Origin: an uncultured Candidatus Saccharibacteria bacterium
GTDB taxonomy: Bacteria; Patescibacteriota; Saccharimonadia; Saccharimonadales; UBA7683
Assembly: GCA_964541305.1 (NCBI GenBank)
Contig: CAZIPE010000001.1
Span: 12,138 to 76,137, forward strand
Length of the DNA: 64,000 nucleotides
Direction: 5' to 3'
The notes below the pieces were generated by a model, which worked only from the letters and a program-made list of their open reading frames with translations, ran no database searches and was not told where the DNA came from. Positions 54,875 to 56,200 of the stretch are shown here, one piece after another (positions within the stretch are counted from its first letter, which is position 1; every line of letters starts with the position of its first letter). The translations under genes and the position numbers were made by a program.

Positions 54875-55309
54875 GTGTCAATAGTTATGGATTCGTCGTC
54901 GAGATTTGAACTCGAACCCCTTCCTGACAATGGCAGTACTCAAGCTATATATCAATACATCAGACCGATGTTTCCATATATGTTACTACGAACTATGTAT
55001 TGTAAGGCTCAAGTTCTAACTTGCAGAAATATATGTCGTAAAACAATGTTGTATACTATCGCTATGATTAACCCTGAGGAAGCGGAGCACTTACGAGAGT
55101 ACAGAGTTCGACCAGATACAATATTGGAGCGTGTACTCGACTCTATAACACCCCCGCTACTGGGATTGGTAGGTGCTGTGGCCTTAGACTTTATACTTGA
55201 CTCACCGTTTGATACTGGCAGTGCTGCTATCTTGGGCGGTACAGCAGGATTTATACACCTTTTTCAAAGAAAAGATTACGAGATAGTAGATAGCCCACCG
55301 AAGCAATAA
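54875..55309 (+). CDS. Doubtful hypothetical ORF
   Basis: 144-aa ORF that begins inside the tRNA fragment and ends inside the 25-bp direct repeat. Possibly non-coding. Confidence 0.2.
   Translation: MSIVMDSSSRFELEPLPDNGSTQAIYQYIRPMFPYMLLRTMYCKAQVLTCRNICRKTMLYTIAMINPEEAEHLREYRVRPDTILERVLDSITPPLLGLVGAVALDFILDSPFDTGSAAILGGTAGFIHLFQRKDYEIVDSPPKQ
54888..54947 (-). pseudogene. Degenerate tRNA-Thr 3'-half copy (att-like remnant)
   Basis: The minus-strand sequence GGAAGGGGTTCGAGTTCAAATCTCGACGACGAATCCA matches 35 of 38 positions of the 3' end of the tRNA-Thr(GGT) at 56126-56200. The 5' half is diverged. Confidence 0.5.
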
Positions 55310-55312
55310 AAC
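55288..55312. repeat. 25-bp exact direct repeat, copy 1 (TAGATAGCCCACCGAAGCAATAAAA)
   Basis: Identical copy at 55572-55596. The ~259 nt between them contains nested inverted repeats (GTACCCC...GGGGTAC). Confidence 0.7.
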
Positions 55313-55571
55313 CCTAAGCTTGCACAGCCATTATTTAGAACTGCGACTCTCTTTGATCTCTTTCTCAGACGGATGAATAGGCAAGAAACAAAAAAACATT
55401 TATAAATTCAAAATCACCTGCGAAAGGCTTAACTGATAAATCAGCGTACCCCTTTATGCCAGGTGATTTGCTTTGAGATTTCCCTAGCATAGGGTTTCCG
55501 CATTGCGGTTACCTACTCAGAATCTAGGGGTACGGTATCGTCTTTCGACTTCCCGTAGATATTTTAACATA

Positions 55572-55596
55572 TAGATAGCCCACCGAAGCAATAAAA
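55572..55596. repeat. 25-bp exact direct repeat, copy 2
   Basis: See copy 1. Confidence 0.7.
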
Positions 55597-55888
55597 AAAG
55601 ACCACGGTCCATATGGGGTGATCTATGTCGCACAAGCTGTATTGTTAGACTAGATTGTGTGATGCTCGTTGTAGACTCGCTTTAAGTCGTTGTCTACTAC
55701 GTTTTGCAGATATATAATTCGAAGTAGATTTGTACCTTACTAGGCTGACGGAATACTACCCTTCTCTCTCATTGTTTACTCGGGGCTCGCTACCTTACCT
55801 CCTCCTCCATAGTTCATTGTGGTGAATTATGGGGGGAGAGGTTTTGAAAAGGTCGAGCTCCCTGTAACGTAAACGGAGGACTTATGTG

Positions 55889-56020
55889 ATGGCGAAAGCT
55901 AAAAACATACGCTACCGAAGGGCCGATAATGGTCGGTACACAACAGAGAGATATGCTGTAAAGCATCCTCACACCACTGTTCGTGAAACCGACAAGGCTC
56001 GGAGGACTAAGAAGAAGTAA
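55889..56020 (+). CDS. Candidate 43-aa highly basic small protein (MAKAKNIRYRRADNGRYTTERYAVKHPHTTVRETDKARRTKKK)
   Basis: Strong SD GGAGGA 8 nt upstream of the ATG. Below the size cutoff of the ORF track. Confidence 0.3.
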   Translation: MAKAKNIRYRRADNGRYTTERYAVKHPHTTVRETDKARRTKKK

Positions 56021-56125
56021 TTCTTTTTAGTGGTGTTTCCGTCAGTCTAATATGGTACAAATCGCTATAAGAATTTTCTATCTGAGTCACACGGTCGCAT
56101 CTGAAATGTTGGGTAATCTTTTGTT

Positions 56126-56200
56126 TGGAGCCGTCGTCGAGATTTGAACTCGAGACCCCTTCCTTACCATGGAAGTGCTCTACCACTGAGCTACGACGGC
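56126..56200 (-). tRNA. tRNA-Thr (anticodon GGT)
   Basis: Minus-strand cloverleaf: acceptor GCCGTCG/CGACGGC, D arm GCTC-AGTGGTA-GAGC, anticodon arm CTTCC-ATGGTAA-GGAAG, T arm TCGAG-TTCAAAT-CTCGA, discriminator T, CCA. Confidence 0.9.

Follow-up and report, generated by a model that had tools for sequence, protein, structure and literature searches.

A stretch of 64 kb from an uncultured Candidatus Saccharibacteria bacterium (the window, whose numbering is used for all coordinates below) carries about 1.18 kb of additional DNA, at 54942-56125, between its tRNA-Thr(GGT) gene and the rpmG gene. This segment is an insertion specific to the lineage and of the classic kind found at the 3' end of tRNA genes, because related strains and species have the tRNA directly beside the unit formed by a small open reading frame (ORF) and rpmG. 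We think it probable that an integrative element targeting tRNA-Thr(GGT) left the segment as a degraded remnant that has no integrase, comparable to a cis-mobilizable element (CIME) and with cargo that has been whittled down differently among strains. Such a feature is well known in kind: it is the ordinary scar of an old mobile-element insertion. The contigs and loci retrieved for comparison with the window are given L codes. The related-strain contigs that show the site before insertion were looked up as encoding exactly the same rpmG protein as the window, and this protein is 89-92% identical to the rpmG products of Saccharibacteria metagenome-assembled genomes. Read along the minus strand, the locus presents tRNA-Thr(TGT), tRNA-Tyr, a 115-amino-acid ORF, tRNA-Thr(GGT), the ~1.18-kb segment, a partial copy of tRNA-Thr, ORF91 and rpmG.

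The insertion is bounded by two copies of the 3' part of tRNA-Thr(GGT), which resemble the left and right attachment (att) sites of an integrated element and which we compared on the minus strand; the ORFs of the insert lie on the plus strand. The intact gene (56126-56200) is called by ARAGORN and by the Rfam tRNA model at 68.7 bits, and its 3' part (56126-56180) is the left, attL-like copy. The attR-like copy at 54888-54941, in the same orientation and 1238-1239 bp away, corresponds to tRNA positions 21-75 with the CCA included. It is decayed: its Rfam score of 20.8 bits lies under the threshold of 29, and ARAGORN makes no call. Of 55 compared positions the copies share 48, with a single indel, and both hold an exact block of 22 nt (54894-54915 and 56132-56153). 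The original prediction had recognized a copy of the 3' part about 1.2 kb from the gene and in the same orientation, with two mismatches and one indel over the terminal 38 nt. All of this is borne out, except that the copy spans 55 nt rather than ~48. The repeat runs from the anticodon arm to the encoded CCA; similarity ends exactly at the CCA and neither flank is similar, therefore the pattern is the one seen at att sites rather than the one left by segmental duplication. Seven positions differ in the displaced copy; the acceptor end is among those affected, and one of the changes makes the anticodon TGT. The non-coding flanks of the window lineage differ from those of relatives by 13-18%, and the seven differences fit the neutral decay of a fragment freed from selection.

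Relatives reveal the site before insertion. Six related-strain contigs (L001, L003, L005-L007 and L010), whose flanks are ~82% identical in DNA sequence, pass straight from the 3' part of tRNA-Thr(GGT) into the ORF91 homologue and rpmG. The whole tRNA is present in L010, where it is 100% identical to that of the window and is followed 43 nt beyond by the small ORF. The closest species representatives (L012-L014 and L017) share this layout, with 325-372 nt from the tRNA end to rpmG. In the window, the corresponding distance from the end of the decayed copy is 303 nt, and because this spacing resembles that of the empty-site relatives we place the decayed copy at the ancestral tRNA position. The flanks agree: the sequence CCATAACTATTGAC that follows the decayed copy is the flank that follows the tRNA in L010, while the intact tRNA of the window is followed by unrelated insert DNA. 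Repeat and flanks together present the textbook outcome of the attP site of an element recombining with the 3' part of a tRNA gene, and from this footprint we infer an integrase-mediated origin. The attL/attR reading of the original prediction is thereby upheld. The comparison with strains lacking the segment, which it had proposed as a check, gives the empty site in relatives at ~82% DNA identity and in the nearest species; none of the retrieved contigs shows an empty site in the same strain. Its description of the locus as the site where tuf is expected does not hold, as at least 20 fetched Saccharibacteria loci have just 37-488 nt between the end of tRNA-Thr(GGT) and rpmG, too little to accommodate tuf. 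On the host side, ORF91 (54588-54863, minus strand; homologues in relatives at 67-73%) and rpmG (54382-54585, minus strand; Pfam Ribosomal_L33) are preceded by a promoter-like site, TTGACA-18-(TG)TATAGT (54852-54881, minus strand; 11 of 12 matches), with an equivalent flank in L010. The insertion left this site, immediately downstream of the decayed copy, undisturbed.

The same repeat bears on an origin that involves no integration at all, by local duplication or illegitimate recombination. Transformed DNA, for example, could recombine through the conserved tRNA and rpmG flanks, and the insert would then have been built piecemeal. We hold this to be quite unlikely. It would account for the strain-variable slots beside tRNA-Thr and tRNA-Trp between conserved tRNA and rpmG genes, and a poor full-length tRNA threading at 54891-54992 hints that more than an att core was copied. 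However, the exact stop at the CCA is the att pattern, and the 55-nt extent from anticodon arm to 3' end is reportedly the usual block for tyrosine-recombinase elements. Moreover, the similarity of 54942-54992 to the 5' half of the tRNA is, by our estimate, no better than chance. The threading itself is an observation of some interest. The Rfam tRNA model draws a full-length but very poor tRNA through 54891-54992 on the minus strand (20.8 bits, E 0.27), whose acceptor stem UUCGUAG/CGACGAA pairs at six of seven positions through changes on both strands. This is probably chance; a tRNA-like attP borne by the element would also fit. The idea that the decayed copy is a working tRNA whose acceptor stem is kept up by compensatory changes was considered and rejected, as the pairing is by our estimate indistinguishable from chance. 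A transfer-messenger RNA (tmRNA), in one or two pieces, was likewise rejected, since ARAGORN finds none and the ORF lies on the strand opposite to the tRNA-like piece.

Within the insert we distinguish three modules: ORF87 (55046-55309, plus strand), a 285-bp unit bounded by 25-bp direct repeats, and a block of ~400-446 bp (55668-56113, plus strand) that carries ORF43. None of them supplies an integrase. In line with the original prediction, no ORF of at least 35 amino acids within 54942-56125 has a Pfam match to an integrase or to a fragment of one, or indeed any Pfam match; nor was an integrase found among ten other mid-sized ORFs of the window. PHROGs and PADLOC gave nothing meaningful for ORF43, ORF87 and the flanking ORFs. 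The division into modules follows from L011, a contig of 933 nt from a strain 98.6% identical to the window, which has the same decayed tRNA copy and ORF87 in a short form of the insert (0.53 kb). In L011 a single 25-mer is followed directly by the sequence of window 55597 onward, so the 285-bp unit is missing. The contig also lacks 55668-56113 (~446 bp); about 24 nt stand there, and then the intact tRNA. The locus thus occurs in three states, empty, 0.53-kb and 1.24-kb, and ORF87 is the only gene common to the long and short forms. Aligned with the short form, the ORF43-block indel has fuzzy boundaries and no visible target-site duplication. Presence and absence of the second and third modules between strains 98.6% identical most likely reflect ongoing deletion, with loss the presumed direction. 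The long arrangement is not an assembly artefact, because two independent Logan assemblies from other sequencing runs (L002 and L004) are 100% identical to the window over 53422-56180.

ORF87 encodes a small, acidic protein with a hydrophobic, Gly-rich core. Between the window and L011 it differs by five synonymous and two non-synonymous changes (ratio of non-synonymous to synonymous polymorphism, pN/pS, 0.12; Fisher p 0.009), and the neighbouring 391 nt hold only two differences. As judged from these substitutions, ORF87 is under purifying selection, and it is very likely a real gene. Among 5.8 billion proteins its relatives are confined to its own cluster, with a weak similarity to a 146-amino-acid Saccharibacteria ORF in L029.

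The first 25-bp repeat (55287-55311, plus strand) covers the final codons and the stop codon of ORF87, and the second (55572-55596, plus strand) lies beyond a non-coding segment of 260 nt (55312-55571). Together with one repeat copy, this segment makes the 285-bp unit. Zero such matches were found in 100 shuffles. The original prediction was right about the exact pair, and its first coordinate is corrected here from 55288 to 55287. Because the first 25-mer is the end of ORF87 with its stop codon, the unit looks like inserted DNA that brought a replacement end for this gene; deletion between the two repeats explains the short form equally well. A tandem duplication of ORF87 as the source was rejected, for the 260 nt have no similarity to ORF87. 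The segment does contain the inverted repeats GTACCCC...GGGGTAC described in the original prediction (which gave its length as ~259 nt), together with a 10-bp hairpin. As a structured element, however, it does not stand out: its folding energy lies within chance on both strands (z -0.99 and -1.13 against shuffles), and the structured part of the insert is the ORF43 block. We found no convincing ORF and no Rfam match in the segment. Its stems of 10 bp (55411-55420/55460-55469) and 8 bp (55446-55453/55526-55533) interleave in pseudoknot order.

ORF43 (55889-56020, plus strand) encodes a 43-amino-acid basic protein, preceded at 8 nt from its ATG by the Shine-Dalgarno sequence GGAGGA (55875-55880, plus strand). 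The original prediction had noted this ORF and its ribosome-binding site; the gene is present and real, and it has homologues. A phmmer search returned 56 cluster representatives at E <= 1e-3 (best 3e-8), and a profile search returned 1130 proteins. Exhaustive HMMER searching was decisive, as a word-based protein search with ORF43 alone had not sufficed. Members are mostly of 40-50 amino acids, with the core YRRADNGxYTTExYAxKHPKTTVKET and Lys-rich tails, and some have two copies of the core; eight columns are invariant in the family alignment A5 (M1, R10, G15, A23, P27, T29, T30 and E33). These sequence comparisons show ORF43 to be a genuine member of a widespread, unnamed family of small basic proteins. 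The family has no counterpart in Pfam, NCBIfam or the PDB, and a literature search for the motif returned only an unrelated plant dehydrin. Peptide-pattern scans of GTDB genomes and IMG/VR for ORF43, and of IMG/VR for ORF87, gave no confirmed relative. By tblastn neither protein has phage matches, and ORF43, the only one of the two searched against plasmids, has one weak match on a Legionella plasmid. Homologues of ORF43 are located in variable regions of unrelated bacteria and have no constant neighbour.

The ORF43 protein is hydrophilic and basic (grand average of hydropathy, GRAVY, -1.79; isoelectric point 11.05). Its AlphaFold (AF2) model, with a predicted local distance difference test score (pLDDT) of 83, has the order strand-strand-helix-strand. 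A resemblance to the beta-beta-alpha metal finger of the Sda1 nuclease, the model's best PDB match, was considered and set aside, as it covers 28 columns at a non-significant E of 2 and the catalytic histidine is not conserved. Some NCBI records (P0152 and P0153) name family members 'multidrug transporter'; for a 43-amino-acid hydrophilic protein this label is almost certainly a propagated mis-annotation.

The block around ORF43 is predicted to form an RNA of exceptional stability. The fold of 55700-56090 has an energy of -156.6 kcal/mol, compared with -101.7 +/- 6.1 for shuffles (z -9.0), and of its 142 pairs 14 are G-U. When the 64 kb were scanned in windows of 390 nt, those of the ORF43 block ranked first and second of 490 on the plus strand, above the tRNA cluster. 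The minus strand of the block also folds strongly (z -8.2), and the plus strand is more stable by 19 kcal/mol. An inverted repeat of 27 nt at 89% identity (55727-55753/56037-56063) extends with bulges into a closing helix of ~50 bp, with its left arm at 55707-55757 and its right arm at 56032-56084 (both plus strand). Inside it lies a near-perfect leader hairpin of 80 nt (55782-55861, plus strand), in which CCUCCUCCUCC pairs with GGGGGGAGAGG and which is rich in CCUCC and GGAGG-like runs. In the predicted minimum-energy structure the ribosome-binding site (55875-55879) is paired with UCUCU at 55765-55769. Upstream, a sigma-70-like consensus match (TTGTCT-17-TATAAT; 55690-55718, plus strand) would put the transcript start at about the first base of the left arm. 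We infer from this model that the ORF43 transcript may start there and that its expression may be regulated by RNA structure. The 27-nt inverted repeat and the strong structure of this region are features additional to those in the original prediction. For the minus strand, the most stable predicted 390-nt fold of the window lies at 35621-36010 (GC-corrected z -3.97), where it overlaps the rplL coding region and sequence downstream.

Such a structure raises the possibility, itself compatible with a remnant of an integrative element, that RNA is the main function: the ORF43 block may be a dual-function or toxin-type RNA, or the 260-nt segment a new pseudoknotted small RNA. The z of -9, the top rank in 64 kb, the advantage of the plus strand, the G-U pairs, the predicted pairing of the ribosome-binding site and the interleaved stems of the 260-nt segment speak in this direction. 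However, the GRAVY and basic character of ORF43 are unlike type I toxins, and the 260-nt segment folds no better than shuffles. The mRNAs of ORF43 homologues are ordinary in predicted structure (z -1.1 and +1.55), thus the strong fold is a property of this cassette and not of the family. The scan for known RNA families, which the original prediction had proposed as a check on a small RNA locus, used Rfam 15 at gathering and permissive thresholds over 54700-56300; it gave tRNAs only, with all other matches far under threshold. We regard it as unlikely that the main function of the locus lies in RNA.

A still-mobilizable miniature element, CIME-like or resembling a miniature inverted-repeat transposable element (MITE), would be moved by an integrase or transposase encoded elsewhere or on a helper. 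Both att-like repeats keep their exact 22-nt core, the modules are present or absent between near-identical strains, and the ORF43 block has inverted repeats near its ends, all as such an element might be expected to show. Nevertheless we consider it unlikely. Searches for a second copy of the modules were negative in the window (self-blast), across 80 Saccharibacteria loci at species level (rpmG with 10-kb flanks), and in JGI metagenomes and IMG/VR scanned for exact patterns of the inverted-repeat consensus and the 25-mer; blastn and tblastn comparison with 91 loci gave none either. Within this scope, the copy search that the original prediction had tied to its MITE option is negative. The whole insert has no blastn match in phage and plasmid collections, and no ORF91 relative was recovered from JGI metagenomes. 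A cognate autonomous element or integrase was not found in the window, the 80 species loci, or the viral, metagenome, phage or plasmid collections. The missing target-site duplication, the fuzzy indel boundaries, the 13% divergence of the att copies and the lack of a same-strain empty site among the retrieved contigs also count against mobility. So does the course of the short-read graph contigs L002 and L004, which run unbroken through all modules, contrary to what assembly behaviour leads one to infer for repeats exceeding the assembly word size. This hints that each module occurs once in the samples concerned, and a multi-copy status is unlikely.

Among the three options of the original prediction (decayed island, miniature non-autonomous element, small RNA locus), the decayed island is the best fit, and it is the one we prefer. 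Several points weigh against it. The case for an integrative origin comes from the footprint, because the searches turned up neither an integrase nor a related full-length element nor a second copy. Between the repeat copies seven of 55 positions differ, the acceptor end included, which implies an old event or attachment sites that were unequal from the start. The exact 25-bp repeat is left unexplained by a remnant. As for the ORF43 block, part of its fold signal is inverted symmetry at the DNA level, because both strands fold strongly, and the 2.4 kb scanned yielded eight promoter-like matches where shuffles lead one to expect 6.5; with no excess over shuffles, the match at 55690-55718 is to be taken as a lead. 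Finally, both indels of L011 could instead be gains. A further possibility is that the insert is a working, integrase-less miniature platform bound to tRNA-Thr, into and out of which strains exchange small self-contained modules such as the ORF43 cassette and the 285-bp unit, the latter restoring ORF87 at its 3' end. We find such a platform improbable. If it were real, the ORF43 transcript, locked by pairing of its 5' and 3' ends, would represent a new kind of regulated small-protein or dual-function RNA module.

Under the preferred reading of a decayed integrative element, the following course of events can be proposed. In a Saccharibacteria lineage, site-specific recombination would have brought an element into the 3' part of tRNA-Thr(GGT). 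The tRNA-like attachment sequence of the element would have rebuilt an intact tRNA at 56126-56200, while the displaced host 3' part (54888-54941) would have stayed beside its old flank and the rpmG promoter, its identity falling to 87% as it decayed. Subsequent loss of the integrase, together with the bulk of the element, would have left three cargo modules. ORF87 may encode a small membrane-type protein carried as cargo, and the 25-bp repeats would have offered a ready substrate for deletion. The ORF43 block may approximate a self-contained gene cassette of ~0.4 kb, made up of the promoter-like site, a structured 5' leader that pairs with the ribosome-binding site, ORF43, and a 3' arm that would pair with the putative 5' end of the transcript. 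Stability and restrained translation would be expected of such an RNA.

Comparison with known systems supplies the context for this proposal. Genomic islands and prophages can use tyrosine recombinases to insert at tRNA genes, within the 3' part (Reiter et al. 1989; Williams 2002). The present locus shares with these elements a tRNA 3' repeat that bounds the insert, a rebuilt tRNA, a displaced fragment beside the old flank, and an empty site in relatives. It differs in having no integrase or recombination gene, in its length of only 1.2 kb, and in repeats that have diverged by 13%. CIMEs are left by the decay of integrative and conjugative elements (ICEs), as in those related to ICESt1 and ICESt3 of Streptococcus thermophilus, whose target is the 3' end of fda. 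Here, too, attL and attR surround a short cargo from which recombination and transfer modules are gone; the target is, however, a tRNA gene instead of the fda 3' end, and no cognate ICE or integrase was found in the lineage.

Other likenesses concern the ORF43 block. Like the morons of phages and islands, it appears to have its own promoter-like site, ribosome-binding site and one small gene, and it is present or absent as a unit between near-identical strains. Unlike them, it has no canonical terminator, it bears long inverted repeats and an 80-nt leader hairpin, and its host element is not a recognizable phage. With MITEs it shares a size of ~0.4 kb, inverted repeats near the ends and variability between strains. 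It departs from them in having no target-site duplication or other copies, in indel edges that lie off the repeat ends, and in encoding a conserved protein. A small ORF in a highly structured RNA of ~350 nt, with pairing of the 5' and 3' ends and a masked ribosome-binding site (here predicted only), recalls hok-type mRNAs, RNAIII and SR1. In contrast to hok-type mRNAs, the ORF43 peptide is strongly basic and hydrophilic and is not a membrane toxin, and no antisense RNA was identified.

The empty-site control documents integration scars at tRNA genes in small-genome Saccharibacteria, and these scars change between near-identical strains. This helps to interpret how strains vary, and where assemblies break, at the tRNA genes of these episymbionts. 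Two by-products are perhaps more useful than the scar itself. One is a widespread, unnamed family of basic proteins of ~43 amino acids with more than 1000 members; the other is its member ORF43, located within the most stable predicted fold in 64 kb and a candidate for small-protein expression controlled by structure.

Further tRNA-linked variation was observed in the window and in other loci. A second strain-variable slot (53612-54381) lies between the 3' end of tRNA-Trp and rpmG and holds ORF137 (53668-54081), which belongs to no family; in relatives the slot contains GIY-YIG, MFS, acetyl- and methyltransferase or PadR genes instead. Within a conserved block of ~30 nt at 54089-54122, CCCTGCCAA corresponds to the 3'-terminal bases of tRNA-Trp and their flank, and in L001 (4142-4316) a 32-nt partial copy of the tRNA-Trp 3' end stands 118 nt from the gene. 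The slot thus resembles a further hotspot of integration linked to a tRNA gene. In several other Saccharibacteria species, tRNA ends are partially duplicated over 15-54 nt at a distance of 45-250 nt from the parent gene: those of tRNA-Tyr in L016, L022 and L078, of tRNA-Thr(TGT) in L069, and of tRNA-Trp in L026, L053, L076 and L081. This recurrence is as expected for small tRNA-gene integration scars and suggests that they are common in Saccharibacteria.

Two features of the window lie apart from the tRNA genes. The ribosomal protein/nusG cluster is split (35716-49971). Its nusG (49429-49971) and an unusually long L1 gene (47109-48092, 327 amino acids) are ~10 kb from the L10 leader, L10 and L7/L12 (36828-35716), and the gap contains a Thy1-Thy1-thymidylate kinase fusion (41418-43787), an HMGL-like enzyme, RidA, a threonine dehydratase and a GGDEF protein. 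Two adjacent giant ORFs on the plus strand, at 8518-13851 (1777 amino acids) and 13912-19974 (2020 amino acids), are followed by ABC-transporter and FtsX/MacB genes.

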